Below, piece by piece: positions 1 through 6,118 of a stretch of 6,118 nucleotides of DNA (within the stretch, counting starts at the first letter, position 1; each line of letters opens with the position of its first letter). The DNA comes from a virus. The DNA lies in the IMG/VR virus record IMGVR_UViG_3300045988_009032, positions 1-6,118 of that record, one strand, 5' to 3'. The translations under genes and the position numbers were made by a program. The notes beneath the pieces are model-generated. The model made no database searches, had not been told where the DNA came from, and saw only the letters and a program-made list of their open reading frames with translations.

Positions 1-55
1 TATATTACCAACCGGGGCATAGGGAACACTAGATAACTGTTCTGTATTAGCATTG
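1..55. repeat. Terminal redundancy, left copy. It is identical to 6064-6118 and is the assembly signature of a circular genome.
   Basis: Bases 1-55 (tatattaccaaccggggcatagggaacactagataactgttctgtattagcattg) match 6064-6118 exactly by direct comparison. Confidence 0.97.
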
Positions 56-366
56 TTAGAAACAGCAGAAGTCATATAGTCCGACATCTGGGTAAATGCC
101 TGTGGAAGCGCACGAGAAATCAAGCGTAACGGCACAGCATAGAAATCGTAATATTCCTTGATACGCGTATAAGCAGCCGTATTCACGGGGACAGTACGGG
201 TAAACCAGTCAGAAGAAATACGATACTTAGTACCAGGAATGGCAATCTGCCAATAGCACGGAAGAATTTCTCCAATTTTTGCCGTAAATAATTTTTTGCT
301 AGACAAATCAAAGGAAGAGCGATGCACGGCAACTCTCGCTCGATCTAGCGGATTAAAATCACTCAT
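1..366 (-). CDS. VP1: Major capsid protein VP1 (phiX174 F homologue), N-terminal 122 codons. The ORF runs off the left edge of the window and continues at 6063 because the genome is circular.
   Basis: ATG at 366-364. My hand translation is MSDFNPLDRARVAVHRSSFDLSSKKLFTAKIGEILPCYWQIAIPGTKYRISSDWFTRTVPVNTAAYTRIKEYYDFYAVPLRLISRALPQAFTQMSDYMTSAVSNNANTEQLSSVPYAPVGNI, with no stop down to base 1. The FDLS, LP, PG, FTRT.PV and EYYDF..VP.RL pattern is typical of microviral VP1 N-termini. 366 nt is exactly 122 codons, and the frame joins in phase to the ORF ending at 4705 through the 55-nt terminal overlap. Confidence 0.93.
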   Translation of the reverse strand, partial: MSDFNPLDRARVAVHRSSFDLSSKKLFTAKIGEILPCYWQIAIPGTKYRISSDWFTRTVPVNTAAYTRIKEYYDFYAVPLRLISRALPQAFTQMSDYMTSAVSNNANTEQLSSVPYAPVGNI

Positions 367-381
367 AATTAATAATTTAAA

Positions 382-2061
382 TTAGACCATACGGTTGAAT
401 ATATTGTTTGCATCATTCAATTTTTTATGCTTAATCATATCACGACAGAATGTTGCACTACGATACCGGAGCTGCTCAAGGAGCTGAACCGTTTCACGTG
501 AAACGTCCGACAAGACATCACGTTCCTGCCCGTTCGCAGGCAGCGCAAACATACAATCCGAGACTTCAGGGTATTGGGCACGGATGTTATATGCATCTCG
601 TAGACTTTCATAATTTTTTTTCGTCTCATATTCTATTCCAGTTTTGAGAATAAACATAATACGATTGGCGTAAGGATCAAGATTATCACCGATGGAAGGC
701 AGATGCCAGTTCCTAAGGAACTTACTGACATGAAGGAATAGCCGATACAACTTATTAATATAAGATTTAATATCGACATCAGAAGAACTGTTACAGCGCC
801 GAGTAAGGCACCGAGCATTATGTAATATAATTTCGTCTTCATTGGTTAGATGATGATTTAATGTAATATATTGATAATAAGCACGAGTTGTAGAAAGAAT
901 AGAATCGGAATCATAATCTATAATACCGAATCTTGCCATTCTCTTCGGCGCGTCTGCAACAGCTCGAATAATTCTAGCAATCGCAACAGCATCGTCATAG
1001 CGAGCACTTGAGAATCGGGGCAATAAGGTACGGATATACGACATGGGGGGAGTTGATTTAACACTGATCCCATTGAAGTTGTAGACTCGTCCATTAATGA
1101 CAGAATCGATTTTTTGTTCAATCGCTTGATAAGGGTCTTCATTCTCATCGAAAACCTCACCCGTTTCAAAGAATCCAAGAGACGCTCTTTGGCAGGGTTT
1201 AAATGCGCGGCATGATCGATATAATAGGGGAGCAGAACTAAGGCTGTTAACGTAGCTCGCAACGTACGAAGCAGCTCCACCGCGGGCAAGCTGGAAATCT
1301 GTACGACCGAGTTTCCAACTCTTATCGTGACACTGTCGTAATACCTCTGAGACTTTCTTCGAGTTTGTGAATAATAAGATATGATAATGCGGGCGGAAAT
1401 GGACTGGGGCATATTCACCCACAGCGTAGAAATGTAGCGATTCATAAGTACCCAATTGTTGAAATAAATGTTTACGTAATCGTTTAATATAGTTCTGAAC
1501 ATCAACATAATTTAAGAATGGTATAAGGTTATTAATACCATATTGTTCAGCAGCGGGATATACCGAATTGTCGACGGCCTGCGATTTATGAATAAAACTA
1601 CGAATAGCATCCATACTAAGAAACCAATTGTCCTTAATAGGCACATATTTCTTAATTTCACGGTCATACGGCACCGTGCCCTGAACTTGCGTGAAGAATA
1701 TATGACGCAATTGGGAAGAATCCTCAGGTTGATATTCAGAGACAGGGATATAAGTGTGGCATTCATAACCGAATACTTGATCTCCTGAGATGCTTAGAGC
1801 GTCTTCATAATCACTATGCAGAACCTCACAATTCATCAGAGGAATATGTTCATTAGCATAAGTAAGTGTTACAAAATAAGAGTATTTGAAAGCACTTCCA
1901 GCGGTCTTCACGCGCATAGACGCTTTTTTCGAACGCTTATGGATACAATAATCGCATTGACCACAATCTACGGCAATACGTGCACCAGTGTAACGATTCG
2001 TGATGAAAGAACGATGCTGACAATGATCGACAGCTTTAATCAAATCAGGAGAAAATTTCAT
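382..2061 (-). CDS. VP4: Rolling-circle replication initiation protein, HUH endonuclease superfamily (microviral VP4, phiX174 A homologue), 559 aa.
   Basis: N-terminal Cys cluster C..H..(x)..CGQCDYC. RCR motif 1-like YFVTLTY (aa 62-68). HUH motif HFRPHYHILLF, with HYH at nt 1381-1389. Double-Tyr motif AASYVASYVNS (Tyr266 and Tyr270, nt about 1252-1266). ATG start at 2061, two nt after the stop of the upstream gene. Confidence 0.95.
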   Translation of the reverse strand: MKFSPDLIKAVDHCQHRSFITNRYTGARIAVDCGQCDYCIHKRSKKASMRVKTAGSAFKYSYFVTLTYANEHIPLMNCEVLHSDYEDALSISGDQVFGYECHTYIPVSEYQPEDSSQLRHIFFTQVQGTVPYDREIKKYVPIKDNWFLSMDAIRSFIHKSQAVDNSVYPAAEQYGINNLIPFLNYVDVQNYIKRLRKHLFQQLGTYESLHFYAVGEYAPVHFRPHYHILLFTNSKKVSEVLRQCHDKSWKLGRTDFQLARGGAASYVASYVNSLSSAPLLYRSCRAFKPCQRASLGFFETGEVFDENEDPYQAIEQKIDSVINGRVYNFNGISVKSTPPMSYIRTLLPRFSSARYDDAVAIARIIRAVADAPKRMARFGIIDYDSDSILSTTRAYYQYITLNHHLTNEDEIILHNARCLTRRCNSSSDVDIKSYINKLYRLFLHVSKFLRNWHLPSIGDNLDPYANRIMFILKTGIEYETKKNYESLRDAYNIRAQYPEVSDCMFALPANGQERDVLSDVSRETVQLLEQLRYRSATFCRDMIKHKKLNDANNIFNRMV

Positions 2062-2063
2062 AA

Positions 2064-2372
2064 TTATTTACGTTTATCAATCACCTGGCGACGGTTACGC
2101 GGGCCAAATGAAACATGAATAAATGTCGGATATATAATAAGTTGATCAAATGGCGAAAAATTATCCGAAAAAATATGAATCATTTCAAGCAACTTATTAA
2201 ATGTAGTAGAGCCATAGGGCTTAATATCGACAGCTTCGCCCATCAGATGTTGAGAATTAGGAGCGCCATTACAAGCCTTATTCTGTTCGGGAGTACGCCT
2301 AGCGCTAGTCACCGAGAAATGAACATTAGAGTACAGCAAATACTCGAAAAAATGCATAAGAGTATAATTCAT
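2064..2372 (-). CDS. Zinc D,D-/L,D-peptidase of the M15 family (Peptidase_M15_3 / VanY-like fold), 102 aa. Candidate endolysin.
   Basis: The signature SARRTPEQNKACNGAPNSQHLMGEAVDI fits the family pattern S-x-x-R-x(3-4)-N-x(3)-G-x(3-4)-S-x-H-x(6)-D. The downstream FIHVSF provides a third His. Putative Zn ligands are His42 (nt 2247-2249), Asp49 (2226-2228) and His86 (2115-2117). The start ATG overlaps the stop of the upstream small ORF (ATGA at 2369-2372). Confidence 0.85.
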   Translation of the reverse strand: MNYTLMHFFEYLLYSNVHFSVTSARRTPEQNKACNGAPNSQHLMGEAVDIKPYGSTTFNKLLEMIHIFSDNFSPFDQLIIYPTFIHVSFGPRNRRQVIDKRK

Positions 2373-2452
2373 AGTCCAATAGCATTAAGAATATAACCAA
2401 GAGCAGCGGAAACAGCACCAATTACAATTTTCCAAATATTACTATTTTTCAT
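2369..2452 (-). CDS. Small single-pass membrane peptide, 27 aa (MKNSNIWKIVIGAVSAALGYILNAIGL). Candidate holin-like or lysis-accessory peptide.
   Basis: ATG at 2452-2450, a short polar/basic N-terminus, then a 19-residue hydrophobic stretch. Its stop overlaps the peptidase start (ATGA). Its start overlaps the end of the 64-aa ORF by 11 nt. The ORF is very short, so the call rests on context and hydrophobicity only. The ORF track shows the same frame open further upstream (to 2593). Confidence 0.4.
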   Translation of the reverse strand: MKNSNIWKIVIGAVSAALGYILNAIGL

Positions 2453-2636
2453 CAGTTTGAGCTTTAAGTTCGACGAAATTGTTTTCTTCTTTAATTGAAT
2501 CCACAACAACAATAAGACCCAGCGGAGAAACTCGCTCAGAATAGTTTCCAAGACCGTCAAGAGAATTGACGACATAAGGCGGTATAACATCACGACCAGT
2601 GTTTTTTTCCTTAAGGGAAATAATAAATTTCTGCAT
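2442..2636 (-). CDS. Hypothetical protein, 64 aa.
   Basis: ATG start at 2636, the first ORF downstream of the long intergenic region. The composition is balanced and globular-looking (MQKFIISLKEKNTGRDVIPPYVVNSLDGLGNYSERVSPLGLIVVVDSIKEENNFVELKAQTDEK). It sits in the same-strand operon. I recognise no family. Confidence 0.5.
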   Translation of the reverse strand: MQKFIISLKEKNTGRDVIPPYVVNSLDGLGNYSERVSPLGLIVVVDSIKEENNFVELKAQTDEK

Positions 2637-2744
2637 AATTGTAAGATTTTAATGTTAATAAATTAATGAGTTTGGTTTCTACGAGGGCAAAGGAAAGAAT
2701 TATTTTTGAATAAACAAAATATTTCGGAGTTTTTTTTATTCTAC

Positions 2745-3010
2745 GGTTAGGGTGTGAGTTGTGCGTTTATAGACAAGAGGAGGTAGAATTTGAGATGATA
2801 ACTCAAATTTCCTTCGGACACAACTAGGGGCTTCGCTTGAATAACATAGGGGTATAGGCACGGCAAGTCAAGTCTGTCTTGCCTTGGCGCACTCCGTGCT
2901 AAAATACCGGAGCGGAACGCTCCTCTAGGGAAGTCGCTCCGCTCCATTTTATACCAGGCCCTACGCGGGCGGCGGGTGTATATCGCTCCAGAGCCGCGAT
3001 GGGCTCTTAG
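2745..3010. other. GC-rich, hairpin- and repeat-dense non-coding island inside the 493-nt intergenic region. It may be a structured ssDNA origin/regulatory element or a structured RNA. The family is unassigned.
   Basis: By hand count, 2821-3010 is 109/190 GC (about 57%), against 23/100 for 2641-2740 and 24/100 for 3021-3120. Helices, in plus-strand coordinates: 2786-2794/2802-2810; 2858-2863/2894-2899, enclosing 2864-2867/2878-2881; 2909-2916/2938-2945, or alternatively 2909-2914/2918-2923; 2958-2961/2967-2970; 2990-2995/3002-3007. Short repeats: CGCTCC x4, TAGGG x4, GGGTGT x3. Confidence 0.6.
2786..2810. promoter_or_regulatory. Stem-loop with 8 Watson-Crick bp and an AT-rich 7-nt loop. Candidate origin or regulatory hairpin.
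   Basis: AATTTGAG (2787-2794) pairs with CTCAAATT (2802-2809). The loop is ATGATAA on the plus strand and TTATCAT on the virion-sense strand. The hairpin sits at the AT-rich edge of the GC island. Confidence 0.35.
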
Positions 3011-3129
3011 TACTGAAGAATGTATACGTAATATTATTTTACTACCGGGTGTCAAAATATTTCGCAAAATCAAATATTCATAACAAAAATAGAGAATAGA
3101 TAAAAATATAAGACAACGAATAGTATTAT

Positions 3130-4245
3130 TTATTTACGGCCAATAGCATTACCAGCTCCTTGGAATATGCGAGTACCATAATCAATAGCATTACGCAATT
3201 CATAAGAATTGACGTCCTTCTGTTTATGTTTAGAAGCCCATTTATAATAATCGCGTAAGGCCTTATCCTTAGAATATTCTACATCCTTAAGGACATTGGT
3301 ATTCTTAAAATCCCAGAGAGAAGACAAACCACGAGCTCGGTTAGACTGGATATTAGCGTAAATCAATGAATCAGCCGTCTGTTCGGCTATTCTATTCTGA
3401 ATTCTAAGACCATTTGTTTCAACAGTTAACTTAACAGCCTTAACCATCTCAGTCTTATACTGGGCTTCGGTAAGAGCACCTTGAGCATACAAATTAGCCA
3501 ATGTCTGACCTTTAATGAACAAATCGGCTTGCTGCTGCTCATCTAAATACTTATTCAATATCTGCTGAGCCTCAGCATCCAAGAGTATCTGAGCTTCTTG
3601 CGCCTGCGTAAGGCGACCTGCAAACTCCATGTTCTTAAGTTCTTGGTACTCCTTAGATTGGTCTAATAATGCGGACTCTCTACCAGTGCTCTTATTCCAG
3701 TAACCAGATTCACCAATGCCAATATTACGATAATCAGTATCACCACGGATTTGTTCAATCTTGTACGGCGTAAGAGCAGCATTCTGTTCGGCATTAAGCA
3801 TAGCAGCACGAGCCTGAGCCATGGAGGCAAGAGCGGAGCCAACGTCGGAGAAGTCCGGACGGAAAGCCTGGAGACTAGGAGGAGGGGAAGCAGAAGCAGC
3901 AGCACCTCCAGAAGCAGGGGCCTTAGAAACGCCAGCACCAACGTTAGAACCAATAAATGGATTAAGACCACGAGAAATCATCTCGTTAGGCGAATTATAT
4001 CGATTATTACGATTCCACATATCAGTTGACCACTGGCGTTGCATAGCAGCCTGATCAGCATTAAACTGATTATTCTGACGGTTAATCTCAACATTAGCAT
4101 CATTAGTGGAAGATTGTGAAGACGCTCCAATAGCATTACCAGCAAGAGAAGCACCAGCAGCAATGATGCCACCAAGAATAAGCGGAGCAATATGCTTTTC
4201 GGAGTGTCCCATTAAGGGGCACTCTCCAATCTCATAGAATCTCAT
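3130..4245 (-). CDS. VP2: Minor capsid / DNA pilot protein VP2 (phiX174 H-like role), 371 aa.
   Basis: N-terminal hydrophobic Gly/Ala-rich segment (IAPLILGGIIAAGASLAGNAIGA). An N/Q-rich block NRQNNQFNADQAAMQRQWSTDMWNRNNRYNSPNEMISRGLNPF resembles the conserved VP2 core (Q..FN...A...R.W...M.N.......M...GLNP). The C-terminal half is long and predicted coiled-coil-like (Q/A/E/L-rich). The position after VP1 fits. The ATG at 4245 overlaps the stop of the upstream gene (ATGA). An alternative start at Met12 (nt 4212) cannot be excluded. Confidence 0.82.
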   Translation of the reverse strand: MRFYEIGECPLMGHSEKHIAPLILGGIIAAGASLAGNAIGASSQSSTNDANVEINRQNNQFNADQAAMQRQWSTDMWNRNNRYNSPNEMISRGLNPFIGSNVGAGVSKAPASGGAAASASPPPSLQAFRPDFSDVGSALASMAQARAAMLNAEQNAALTPYKIEQIRGDTDYRNIGIGESGYWNKSTGRESALLDQSKEYQELKNMEFAGRLTQAQEAQILLDAEAQQILNKYLDEQQQADLFIKGQTLANLYAQGALTEAQYKTEMVKAVKLTVETNGLRIQNRIAEQTADSLIYANIQSNRARGLSSLWDFKNTNVLKDVEYSKDKALRDYYKWASKHKQKDVNSYELRNAIDYGTRIFQGAGNAIGRK

Positions 4246-4691
4246 TGTACACTAGCGGCAGATGCGGAATCCGTAGACGGCGCTGCCTTGTCCTCTGCCA
4301 CTGCCAGCATAGCTTGAGCATATTTAGTAAGCTCAGATTTCTCATTAGCCAATTGCTGCAATACAGCCCGACGCTCAGACATAGTCTGACAATGACGAGA
4401 AATGACACAATTAAATCGTTCCTCATCAGTCATATCGTCCATAGGAGTAGACTGAGTAGGATGCATCTGGGCTAAGATATTATTAACATTCATATCGCCA
4501 AGAAGACGACGGTACTTCTCCTGGTTAAGAAGAATAGAAGTCATATCCATATACATATACGAGCCGTCAGACAATTCTTCCAACATAACCGAATCATATG
4601 CACTAGCTTCGTAACAGGGGTTTCCCTCAATCAATTCAGGAACCACACTATCCTGTTCGAAATCAGGATTTAAATAAGCAAAATTTCTCAT
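4242..4691 (-). CDS. Acidic 149-aa hypothetical protein, possibly an internal scaffolding protein (VP3-like).
   Basis: The first ATG downstream of the VP1 stop is at 4691 (MRNFAYLNPDFEQDS...), 13 nt after the VP1 stop at 4705-4707. The protein is strongly acidic (D/E-rich). It lies between VP1 and VP2 and is translationally coupled to VP2. The functional label is inference from size, charge and position. The 192-aa version in the ORF track begins inside VP1 and is not favoured. Confidence 0.65.
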   Translation of the reverse strand: MRNFAYLNPDFEQDSVVPELIEGNPCYEASAYDSVMLEELSDGSYMYMDMTSILLNQEKYRRLLGDMNVNNILAQMHPTQSTPMDDMTDEERFNCVISRHCQTMSERRAVLQQLANEKSELTKYAQAMLAVAEDKAAPSTDSASAASVQ

Positions 4692-4704
4692 AACGACACA
4701 CAAA

Positions 4705-6118
4705 CTAATAAGGTAAACCATTTCTATCCAAGTTCTGTACAGCATACACTTGGAAATTAACATTACATAATAACTGGTCATAAGCCACATTATAATTACT
4801 AGTAGTAATCTGCGGCTCAAATATAGAATTCAGCTGCTGAGGACGAATCTTAAATGACTGATAACTCAATGAAGACTGACCAGAGACTTGAATCTGAGAA
4901 CCTTGAAGCGGAGCAACCCAAGATTGGTAAGCAGCAGCAGGACGAAATGCACCATGGACCGTGTCTACGGCGGATTTCCATTGCCAATAGCGAAGATTAT
5001 AACCAATATTGCCAGTAGGAGAGGACGGACTATTATTAAGCACCAGAGAAGGAACAGGCTGCATACCTAATTGGTCGAATGCAGGTTGGGGGAAATCGGA
5101 AACAGACGTACATAACAACTGAGGATTATGGCCTTTAAGAGACCAATCAAGCAGAGGAACAGCATGATAAACACACATAATTACCTGATGCTCAGCACCG
5201 CAATCATAATTAATAGTATGACCAGAGTTAGAGCCAACACCTTTACCGGCAATAACAGCTTGAGAGTTATCAGCAGTCAAGTTGGTGTTCAAAACCTCGT
5301 TAATATTGATAACATTAGACCAACCTCCAATATAATGGGCATGATTACCCATGTATTCAGGGGCCTTAATTCCAAATTGAGCGGCCATCTGGTCTGAATA
5401 ATCTTTACTTGCGAATTGGACTACTTCTTTCCAACGCTGGAGGTATTCTGTCGCACGGATTGAGAGGGCGGATAGGTCAGAGCTTAGAAAAAGAGCTTGA
5501 GAAGAAGATCCATTCGAACCACTCATAGAAACAGAAGTCGACGATGCATCATTTATCAGATTAGTACCAGTCTTAGGATTGAGTATCACATTAGAAGGCA
5601 AATAAGAAGACAAAGACGGCAGAACAGCTACCGAACCATACTGAGAAGCGGGAAGCACGCCGAGGAAATAATCCTTAGGGTAGTTAGCATAGCGCAACTT
5701 AATCATATCAGCAGAAATCTCAACAGAACGCTTACCATCCCAATAATCAACATTATAAGAATAAGCCAAATGTTTCTCCCACTGAGAATTGGAGAAGAAA
5801 TCGAAGTAGATTTTCTGATAGGCGAATATAGGCAGAAGATTCAAATTAATAGAAGTACCGTAAATAAGTGGATTCTGAGAATCCGACAATGAAGTGGTAT
5901 CAAGACCAAGATACTGCATAGTAATCTCTTTCTTCGTAGTGTTTTTAGTACCAATAAATGAACCATAACCAAGCATATCCAATAGCTTACAAGAGCCATA
6001 AGCGAATCCAAAACCAGCGTCATCAACAGTATTAGCAGTTACACGAGCCTGAATTTCAGCAGATATATTACCAACCGGGGCATAGGGAACACTAGATAAC
6101 TGTTCTGTATTAGCATTG
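4705..6118 (-). CDS. VP1: Major capsid protein VP1, central and C-terminal part. It continues from 1-366 across the circular junction. 6064-6118 duplicates 1-55.
   Basis: The frame is open from 6118 down to the stop at 4705-4707. The start the ORF track lists at 5982 is a TTG inside a longer open frame. I translated 5983-6117 by hand (...NANTEQLSSVPYAPVGNISAEIQARVTANTVDDAGFGFAYGSCKLL-DMLGYGSF...) and found no stops. It is in phase with the ATG at 366 (366 + 1359 = 1725 nt = 574 aa plus stop). It is a large jelly-roll-sized protein with typical microviral segments such as YFLGVLPASQYG. Confidence 0.93.
   Translation of the reverse strand, partial: NANTEQLSSVPYAPVGNISAEIQARVTANTVDDAGFGFAYGSCKLLDMLGYGSFIGTKNTTKKEITMQYLGLDTTSLSDSQNPLIYGTSINLNLLPIFAYQKIYFDFFSNSQWEKHLAYSYNVDYWDGKRSVEISADMIKLRYANYPKDYFLGVLPASQYGSVAVLPSLSSYLPSNVILNPKTGTNLINDASSTSVSMSGSNGSSSQALFLSSDLSALSIRATEYLQRWKEVVQFASKDYSDQMAAQFGIKAPEYMGNHAHYIGGWSNVININEVLNTNLTADNSQAVIAGKGVGSNSGHTINYDCGAEHQVIMCVYHAVPLLDWSLKGHNPQLLCTSVSDFPQPAFDQLGMQPVPSLVLNNSPSSPTGNIGYNLRYWQWKSAVDTVHGAFRPAAAYQSWVAPLQGSQIQVSGQSSLSYQSFKIRPQQLNSIFEPQITTSNYNVAYDQLLCNVNFQVYAVQNLDRNGLPY
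6064..6118. repeat. Terminal redundancy, right copy, identical to 1-55.
   Basis: Exact 55-nt match to the window start. Confidence 0.97.

Follow-up and report, generated by a model that had tools for sequence, protein, structure and literature searches.

A modular, covarying non-coding element behind the pilot gene of Alpavirinae-like microviruses: a candidate folded single-stranded DNA origin region

What occupies the one long non-coding gap in an otherwise compact microvirus genome? The question is raised by a stretch of 6,118 nucleotides (IMG/VR record IMGVR_UViG_3300045988_009032, positions 1 to 6,118; this whole stretch is called the window below), which represents a circular genome of 6063 nt in permuted form, with bases 1-55 recurring at 6063-6118. 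The open reading frame (ORF) list and the Pfam and PHROG matches place all genes on the minus strand and, since the packaged strand of microviruses is the gene-sense strand, the minus strand is both mRNA sense and viral strand; a sense coordinate s equals 3019 minus the window position. The Rep gene directly upstream of the capsid gene, the peptidase gene between the pilot gene and Rep, and the genome size of more than 6 kb are Alpavirinae-like, the same traits having been described for these microviruses of Bacteroides and Prevotella (PMC3091885; PMC3394797). As the original prediction, made from the letters alone, had claimed, the gene junctions are tight (overlaps or at most ~16 nt) with the sole exception of the gap at 2637-3129. 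Its description of this gap as the only long intergenic region is correct for this genome; however, gaps of 255-1051 nt after the pilot gene are general across this microvirus lineage, and the gap is therefore no peculiarity of the window. We report that the gap contains a large conserved non-coding element, in which pairing within the viral strand is under selection, and we lean towards the view that this element is a folded single-stranded DNA (ssDNA) origin region.

Searches of GenBank phages with blastn recovered the element from ~35 microviruses sampled from lemur, dog, marmot and human sources, always between the pilot gene and the small gene. A 23-base pattern drawn from its most conserved part occurs in at least 119 IMG/VR contigs, of which all but two of those examined are ~6-kb genomes. 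The homologue search proposed with the original prediction places the element in more than 120 microviruses at the same genomic position. The same 23-base pattern is present in 78 of 80 relatives that were gathered by their Rep protein alone. A Rep-based search of IMG/VR for remoter relatives returned the same clade only, and the distant clades considered below came from tblastn against GenBank phages. Sequence conservation extends beyond the structured island (2741-3018) through the AT-rich left flank as far as 2637. The right flank (3019-3129) is not conserved, and in OP549867, MG945488 and MG945572 it is missing, the element beginning 1-6 nt after the pilot stop codon.

The structure (Table 1) was drawn by hand from a MAFFT alignment of 66 representatives with less than 93% mutual identity, using RNAalifold and mutual information, and was then tested. 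The covariation test favours it: in alignment A2 91.8% of cells are paired and 39 of the 63 pairs have changed on both sides, with a covariation score of 0.177 against 0.093 for shuffles (0 of 500 reaching the observed value) and at most 0.05 for slid partners. Helices P2, P3, P4b, P5, P6, P7, P8 and P9 are well supported, as are the two-pair hairpins M1 and M2. For example, the P4b pair G97-C109 is replaced by A-U in 20 of 66 sequences and the P5 A-U pair by G-C in 15 of 62, the P5 loop being GGA, AGA or four bases in relatives, while in P6 both sides have changed in five of six pairs, giving variants such as GGCAGG/CCTGCC, GGGAG/CTCCC and GACAAG/CTTGTC. The expectation of at least five helices was right as to folding and too low as to number, as comparison supports ~13 helices and mini-hairpins; two further drawn helices, P0 and P10, are weakly supported. 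Mutual information in the alignment gave no long-range or pseudoknot signal.

The composition and folding of the window itself agree with the earlier description of a GC-rich, structured core between AT-rich flanks. The GC fraction is 0.526 over 2745-3010 and 0.57-0.60 in 100-nt windows at 2850-2999, against 0.231 in the left flank, 0.235 in the right flank and 0.407 in the whole genome. The segment 2735-3020 was folded against dinucleotide-preserving shuffles on both strands, with DNA and with RNA parameters, as had been suggested, and all four folds beat their shuffles; the strongest was the minus strand as DNA (z = -4.99), followed by the minus strand as RNA (-3.64), the plus strand as DNA (-3.47) and the plus strand as RNA (-2.69). 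The short repeats and mutually exclusive pairings noticed earlier were also recovered, in that two GGAGCG copies compete for one CGCTCC: the 5' copy, within GGAGCGG at 2939-2945, is able to pair with the 3' arm of P4b instead. As to the functional strand, P7 contains a T-G pair in 65 of the 66 sequences, where the opposite strand would have A-C, and this pair, together with the strand asymmetry of the mini-hairpins described below, points to the sense (viral) strand. The minority G-T and A-C cells over all pairs (60 versus 77) are not decisive in this respect, the A-C count being high because weak or misaligned helices dominate it. The element is thus a conserved non-coding one, with intrastrand pairing on the viral strand under selection.

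The island is modular, consisting of a 5' domain drawn as a three-way junction, a terminator-like hairpin (P4b), two further hairpins (P5 and P6) and a 3' module of ~96 nt, which is the universal core. L028, L049, L079 and L106, like the distant clades, have no 5' domain, and the 3' module is present in genomes without 5' domains. In those four relatives the pilot stop codon is followed by a terminator-like hairpin with a T-run, then TTCCGAAAGTATCG, then the 3' module; L028 retains P4b and all four are without P5-P6. We ran a covariance model of the 3' module (R1) on the post-pilot gaps of distant microviruses and found the module in five of them with E-values of 1e-8 to 2e-3, namely Dulem 257 (53.6 bits), bajarodmic 1134 (48.5 bits), Peromfec RodF7_5 (38.8 bits), bajarodmic 1102 (32.2 bits) and Dulem 216 (27.2 bits); weak matches were seen in mar47, Dulem 263 and Dulem 245 (E = 0.04-0.3). 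The Rep proteins of these viruses are 24-32% identical to that of the window, except for Dulem 216 (46% over a short segment). Across these distant clades (alignment A4) 98.3% of the cells of the 3' module are paired and 17 of 19 pairs have changed on both sides, figures to be read with the fitting of this alignment to the R1 model, which favours the structure. Several unpaired positions are also kept across clades: the GAA loops, an A preceding P7, T.ACA at the 3' end and, in the multiloop, CTTGTC..TA.A..G. In every clade examined the next annotated gene, or Rep itself, follows ~20-270 nt downstream of the 3' module. The original prediction was therefore sound in proposing a structured non-coding element; its modular build, the terminator-like hairpin, the DNA mini-hairpins and the lineage-wide occurrence of such gaps had gone unseen.

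A further feature of the element is its enrichment in a heptameric mini-hairpin, C-GNA-G with a complementary closing pair, that is GCGNAGC or GCGNNAGC and closing-pair variants. Inside the island the window has four such N-C-GNA-G-N' heptamers on one strand, the sense strand: GCGGAGC (2936-2942), ACGGAGT (2891-2897), GCGAAGC (2830-2836) and CCGAAGG (2811-2817). In 108 genomes of the family the density of the motif is 10.6 per kb inside the element versus 0.59 in the rest of the genome (18-fold), for strict GCGNAGC it is 8.3 versus 0.11 per kb (73-fold), and inside the element 332 copies are sense versus nine antisense, all of these being counts over homologous copies and hence not independent. 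Independent support for the motif comes from three further observations. In one subgroup the six-pair P4b is replaced by GCGAAGC, GCGTAGC or GCGCAGC. The genome of mar56, in which the 5' region is unalignable, contains eight such motifs. Finally, the post-pilot gaps of ten distant microviruses contain 29 sense versus four antisense motifs (5.35 per kb sense, against 0.37 elsewhere on the sense strand and 0.74 on the antisense strand of the gaps), most of the sense-strand copies lying outside the shared module in sequence that cannot be aligned with the window. C(GNA)G mini-hairpins, a generic motif, are hyperstable as DNA and not as RNA, are bound poorly by single-stranded DNA-binding protein (SSB) and resist nucleases; they occur at the complementary-strand origins of G4, St-1 and alpha3, in ssiA of plasmid RSF1010 (CCGAAGG) and in the hairpin promoters of the N4 virion polymerase (PMC13037366). 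As the two-pair stems of M2 and P8 covary, they are real and selected as pairs, and stems of two pairs are plausible in DNA only, being hard to square with RNA energetics. Outside the gap the viral strand has fewer copies of the heptamer than the complementary strand (21 versus 45 in the distant clades, 370 versus 432 in the family), perhaps because stray hyperstable hairpins are avoided in packaged DNA.

Based on the pairing, strand, motif and position of the element we favour, with modest confidence, the first of the three hypotheses originally offered, an origin folding in the packaged ssDNA. In this proposal the island would combine complementary-strand priming signals with a recognition and nick site for Rep, organised like the intergenic region of the filamentous Ff phages; that DNA rather than RNA is the active form, that it primes and that it is nicked, we infer in each case. 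On entry into the cell the viral strand would become covered with host SSB; the stable C(GNA)G mini-hairpins and the longer hairpins would stay folded and SSB-free, and the folded patch would mark the start of the complementary strand for host primase, primosome or RNA polymerase, as in G4, St-1, alpha3 and RSF1010 ssiA. The 3' module would display the unpaired invariant CTYGTCYATAAACG, or alternatively the P9 loop, closed by P7 and flanked by two mini-hairpins, as the likely recognition and nick site of Rep, i.e. the viral-strand origin. The module appears to go with Rep, since it accompanies nearly all relatives defined by Rep and its unpaired core is kept where Rep identity falls below 30%; nick sites are likewise kept in other rolling-circle systems. 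The A-run, the AT-rich block and the operon with Rep as its last gene follow closely downstream of it. P4b with its T-run, in the middle of the element, probably also terminates the capsid-scaffold-pilot transcript, giving an overall predicted order of terminator, origin signals and Rep-operon promoter, the same as in the Ff intergenic region. In other clades of microviruses, too, conserved hairpins with compensatory changes have been described between genes, and a part in complementary-strand initiation has tentatively been suggested for them (PMC9865509). More tentatively, arrays of DNA-specific GNA mini-hairpins on the viral strand may possibly serve as a general 'landing pad' that recruits a host enzyme onto SSB-coated DNA in the Alpavirinae-like microviruses of Bacteroidota, the most abundant ssDNA phages of the human gut.

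Several alternatives have to be set against this proposal. That the island encodes the 108-residue protein of the ORF at 2747-3073 has next to no probability, even though the frame is open in the window and PP511392 annotates the homologous stretch as a coding sequence. Third-position variation in this frame had been named beforehand as the sign that would speak for a gene; in the window and 57 full-length relatives there is no such excess, the substitution rates at codon positions 1/2/3 being 0.146, 0.219 and 0.116, so that the third position changes least. Furthermore, 280 runs of insertions or deletions are out of frame versus 21 in frame, 54 of the 58 sequences contain extra stop codons (2-9 each), and the translation has no Pfam or PHROG match. 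We therefore discarded the ORF as a gene. The proposal that the segment is host-derived or an integration site fares little better. It would make the island an attachment site for host XerC/XerD integration, possibly folded as a single strand as in the CTX phage, such integration having been proposed for Alpavirinae proviruses. The Alpavirinae-like gene order of the window, in the placing of both Rep and the peptidase gene, speaks for it, and Alpavirinae proviruses are flanked by dif-like sites upstream of Rep, some with a second site (PMC3091885; PMC3394797). Yet there is no match to the bacterial dif consensus, which is not Bacteroidetes-specific, within three mismatches, and half-sites occur at chance level and outside the island. 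A scan of 185,579 species, each represented by one genome, gave no genuine copy of the invariant 23-mer, the single match being a chance one inside unrelated sequence, and the PLSDB plasmids gave one match, at chance level. A 28-bp recombination site would also leave ~13 covarying helices unexplained, and we regard this alternative as very improbable.

A structured RNA on the phage transcript, either a 3' untranslated domain of the capsid-scaffold-pilot mRNA acting in stability, processing or termination or a separate non-coding RNA with an effect on the expression of host or phage genes, deserves closer attention, since packaged DNA and mRNA share one sense, so that covariation cannot tell them apart. 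The functional strand is that of the mRNA, the minus strand as RNA folds better than its shuffles (z = -3.64, as given above), and because the element abuts the pilot stop codon in some relatives at least its 5' domain is transcribed there. This domain lacks a mini-hairpin and lies directly upstream of a terminator-like hairpin with a competing partner, superficially resembling an aptamer with its expression platform, and could act as RNA; moreover, the P8 loop is GAAA or GTAA in some relatives, which are also classic RNA tetraloops. These points weigh against our proposal, as do the dependence of the motif counts on homologous family copies, the failure to find a phiX174-type origin or ssoA CS-6, the non-significant likeness to the M13 origin, and the derivation of the terminator and promoter assignments from consensus scans. 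Against an RNA stands, however, the position of the 3' module downstream of a terminator-like site, which separates it from the pilot stop codon in 106 of 111 genomes, and consensus scans gave no upstream promoter or downstream terminator framing the element. Two-pair GNA hairpins are weak in RNA (PMC13037366) and yet covary and recur independently in distant clades. In line with the original prediction, which recognised no known RNA here, no Rfam match was obtained in 2637-3129 on either strand at E up to 10, and ARAGORN found no tRNA or tmRNA in the gap; the silence of the mutual information on long-range or pseudoknot contacts also argues against an RNA. A riboswitch-like reading of the 5' domain and terminator was rejected for want of an anti-terminator, since both competing pairings stop at the same base before the T-run. 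The RNA hypothesis thus keeps some weight for the 5' domain above all; for the universal 3' module the evidence speaks against it, and on the whole it is rather unlikely. An ssDNA signal for some other role, such as packaging or capsid contact, or protection against nucleases or host defence at entry, would draw on the same structural evidence as the origin. The Ff intergenic region also holds a packaging hairpin; in phiX174-type phages, on the other hand, packaging is coupled to Rep-driven synthesis and no separate packaging site is known. The nuclease resistance of mini-hairpins (PMC13037366) and a host CRISPR spacer that targets the invariant core speak for such a signal. Nevertheless, invariant unpaired sequence that is kept across less than 30% Rep identity, beside the Rep operon, fits the target of an enzyme better than a capsid contact, and we consider such a role improbable.

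Folded origin regions of the kind that we propose have several known counterparts. G4 and phiX174 have hairpin origins of a known kind in Microviridae. Viral-strand hairpin origins are likewise already known from small microviruses (PMC9865509). The DnaG-dependent complementary-strand origins of G4, St-1 and alpha3, located between F and G in the same virus family, are likewise clusters of hairpins in a viral-strand intergenic region that are thought to stay SSB-free, and contain the mini-hairpin motif as GCGAAAGC in G4 and GCGTTAGC in St-1 and alpha3 (PMC13037366). They differ in spanning ~140 nt with three hairpins, against ~280 nt with ~13 supported helices and mini-hairpins here, in belonging to phages of another host phylum and in lacking sequence similarity, and the module here is probably tied to Rep. 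In the Ff phages (f1, M13 and fd) ~500 nt of non-coding sequence separate the last late gene from gene II, the Rep gene, much as here, in the order terminator hairpin, complementary-strand origin hairpins, viral-strand origin with nick site, and Rep gene; consensus scans give the corresponding order of terminator hairpin, predicted origin hairpins and Rep gene in the window, whose Rep matches the Pfam family REP_ORF2-G2P, named after the filamentous-phage gene II protein. The Ff phages nonetheless belong to another branch of virus realms and have another virion, and promoter-mimicking hairpins of their type are not evidenced here. The best alignment of the M13 intergenic region (L188) with the 3' module, CTCTTGT-TCCAAAC..ACTCA-ACCCTA beside the gene II nick site, was equalled by 65 of 1000 shuffles (p ~0.07). 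In ssiA and ssiB of RSF1010 and the sso of rolling-circle plasmids, lagging-strand synthesis is started by orientation-specific folded ssDNA, and the ssiA mini-hairpin CCGAAGG is identical to P8 (PMC13037366). The sso-type origins are modular cassettes beside a Rep-specific origin, as are the 5' domains here; ssiA, however, is only ~40 nt long and read by a plasmid-encoded primase, the plasmids have no similarity to the element, and ssoA CS-6 (TAGCGT or TAGCGA) is absent from both strands of the gap. The hairpins of reekeekee- and roodoodoo-microviruses are also non-coding, with compensatory changes and random stop codons, and have tentatively been linked to complementary-strand initiation (PMC9865509); like the phiX174 primosome assembly hairpin they are single hairpins, 13-64 nt long, whereas the present element is multi-domain with a module common to deep clades. 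With regard to a phiX174-type origin (CAACTTG/ATATTAATAAC), matches to ACTTGATATTA with up to three mismatches occur at chance level and none in the conserved core, CTTGATA is absent from the gap, and the invariant CTYGTCYATAAAC has no more than CTTG and an AT-rich run in common with it. In the literature, which we covered incompletely, we found no description of the element, of an Alpavirinae-like origin or mini-hairpin arrays there, or of any origin, priming or cis element of a Bacteroidota microvirus. The element is unusually large, modular and deeply conserved, and is a directly testable candidate origin for a major group of gut phages.

Table 1. Genes, helices and other features in and around the gap, in window coordinates
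Feature	Coordinates	Strand	Remarks
Major capsid protein	366 wrapping to 4705	-	574 aa
Scaffold-like ORF	4691-4242	-	
DNA pilot protein	4245-3130	-	
Non-coding gap	3129-2637		493 nt, between pilot gene and small ORF
AT-rich spacer after pilot stop codon	3019-3129	-	length and sequence vary among relatives; outside element
Whole structured island	2741-3018	-	conserved in >120 microviruses, covariation
5' domain, drawn as three-way junction	2951-3018	-	contains near-invariant GATATACACCCGCCGCCCGCGTAGGGCC
P0, weak outer stem	3008-3012 with 2952-2956	-	69% paired
P1	3001-3004 with 2958-2961	-	95% paired, hardly varies
P2	2996-3000 with 2982-2986	-	AUCGC/GCGAU to AUCAC/GUGAU, AUCC/GGAU
P3 hairpin	2964-2974	-	C-G pair to U-A and G-C
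M1 mini-hairpin GCGGAGC	2936-2942	-	two-pair stem, GGA triloop; GCGRAGC nearly invariant
P4b hairpin GGAGCG-TTC-CGCTCC	2909-2923; with T-run 2900-2923	-	then GGTATTTTA; found by terminator scan
P5 hairpin GCAC-GGA-GTGC	2889-2899	-	encloses mini-hairpin ACGGAGT in window
P6 hairpin	2858-2888	-	GC...GC base, internal loop, GGCAAG/CTTGCC
Variable linker, insertion site	2847-2857	-	relatives with extra hairpins or ~170-nt inserts
3' module, universal core	2751-2846	-	~96 nt
M2 mini-hairpin GCGAAGC	2830-2836	-	
P7 closing stem	2818-2824 with 2758-2764	-	
P8 mini-hairpin CCGAAGG	2811-2817	-	
P9 hairpin, loop TTATCAT	2787-2809	-	
Pyrimidine-rich stretch followed by invariant unpaired CTYGTCYATAAACG	2764-2777	-	
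ACTCACAC	2752-2759	-	
P10 small hairpin CTA-ACCG-TAG, weak	2741-2750	-	59% of cells pair in A2, partly alignment slippage
A-run, 7-9 A on viral strand	2730-2737	-	conserved
AT-rich block to small-gene ATG	2637-2729	-	conserved TTTG, TAGA, TTATTAAC
Spurious 108-codon ORF	2747-3073	-	open in window; no Pfam or PHROG match
Small ORF	2636-2442	-	
M15 peptidase	2372-2064	-	
Rep	2061-382	-	559 residues; Pfam REP_ORF2-G2P

The remaining parts of the gap (Table 1) can be described briefly. On the sense strand P4b is a G+C-rich hairpin followed by a T-run in the consensus scan, and this pair of features is probably an intrinsic terminator of the capsid-scaffold-pilot transcript. The linker between P6 and the 3' module appears to be a hot spot for added modules: optional hairpins there include TATACA..TGTATA and CTAGATC..GATCTAG, an extra hairpin CTAGATCTATTAGTAATGGATCTAG is found in L007, L014, L051, L054, L062, L096, L104, L109 and L113, and L015 and L090 share an insert of ~170 nt. 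The AT-rich block at 2637-2729 is presumed to be a promoter or unwinding region for the block of the small gene, peptidase and Rep; as the strict Bacteroidetes promoter pattern has no match on either strand, its promoter role stays presumptive. The island is bracketed by a perfect 12-nt direct repeat, CAAAATATTTCG, at 2715-2726 and 3053-3064, and its two AT-rich flanks are joined by several imperfect inverted repeats; pairing of flank with flank was set aside, as it is not kept in relatives, and these repeats, unconserved where the upstream spacer differs, may be due to chance in AT-rich sequence or may be a trace of recombination. The non-conserved spacer also contains, at 3028-3036 on the minus strand, TAATATTAC, the nonanucleotide cut by the Rep proteins of geminiviruses and nanoviruses. 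A close relative, L015, has TTATATTAC at this position, and the nonanucleotide, unconserved across the element family, is probably a chance occurrence.

Certain database entries touching the element call for comment. A 'hypothetical protein' coding sequence laid over the element, or a small gene extended into it, is annotated in PP511392 (3352-3678), PP511526 (3581-3784), PP511799 and PP511648 (3403-3555 and 3397-3549), OP549867 (3618-3914), PP511885 and PP511322; these are probably annotation artefacts. The IMG/VR contigs L084 (21.7 kb, ~12077-12893) and L093 (26.4 kb, ~5730-6546) were considered as proviruses and rejected, as they are CRISPR loci and not viruses: each contains a type I-C CRISPR-Cas locus with Cas5c, Cas8c, Cas7, Cas4 and Cas1c and the CRISPR repeat GTCACACCCTACGTGGGTGTGTGGATTGAAAC. 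One of the spacers, TTGTCTATAAACGTTGAACTCACACAGCGCCCCA, has its match in the invariant core of the 3' module, in the subgroup whose P7 is GTTCAAT/GTTGAAC, and in L018 the matching site is preceded by TTC. A spacer directed against the module core could point to the host. Outside the gap an unannotated hydrophobic ORF of 27 codons, MKNSNIWKIVIGAVSAALGYILNAIGL, lies at 2452-2369 on the minus strand between the small gene and the peptidase, overlapping both neighbours, with an ATGA overlap at the peptidase start. Its predicted product resembles one membrane-spanning helix and is a possible lysis or holin-like partner of the M15 peptidase.

In the human gut and mouth, Alpavirinae-like microviruses count among the most common phages, and the element, which is alignable and has a covariance model, offers a concrete target for origin mapping in them. 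It can help to guide the construction of infectious clones and vectors, can serve to correct the hypothetical-protein annotation in GenBank, and is usable for recognising these viruses in metagenomes and for linking them to hosts through CRISPR spacers. Mini-hairpins, described for a few phages of E. coli and a single plasmid, are extended by it to a large natural family, which lends comparative support to the idea that they mark sites of initiation on ssDNA. If the more tentative landing-pad reading is true, the 96-nt module would be the first defined origin for the lineage. The 5' domain would in that case be another folded DNA with a function, or else a terminator-controlling RNA switch, in either case with a partner of its own, and hence a new class of structured nucleic acid.

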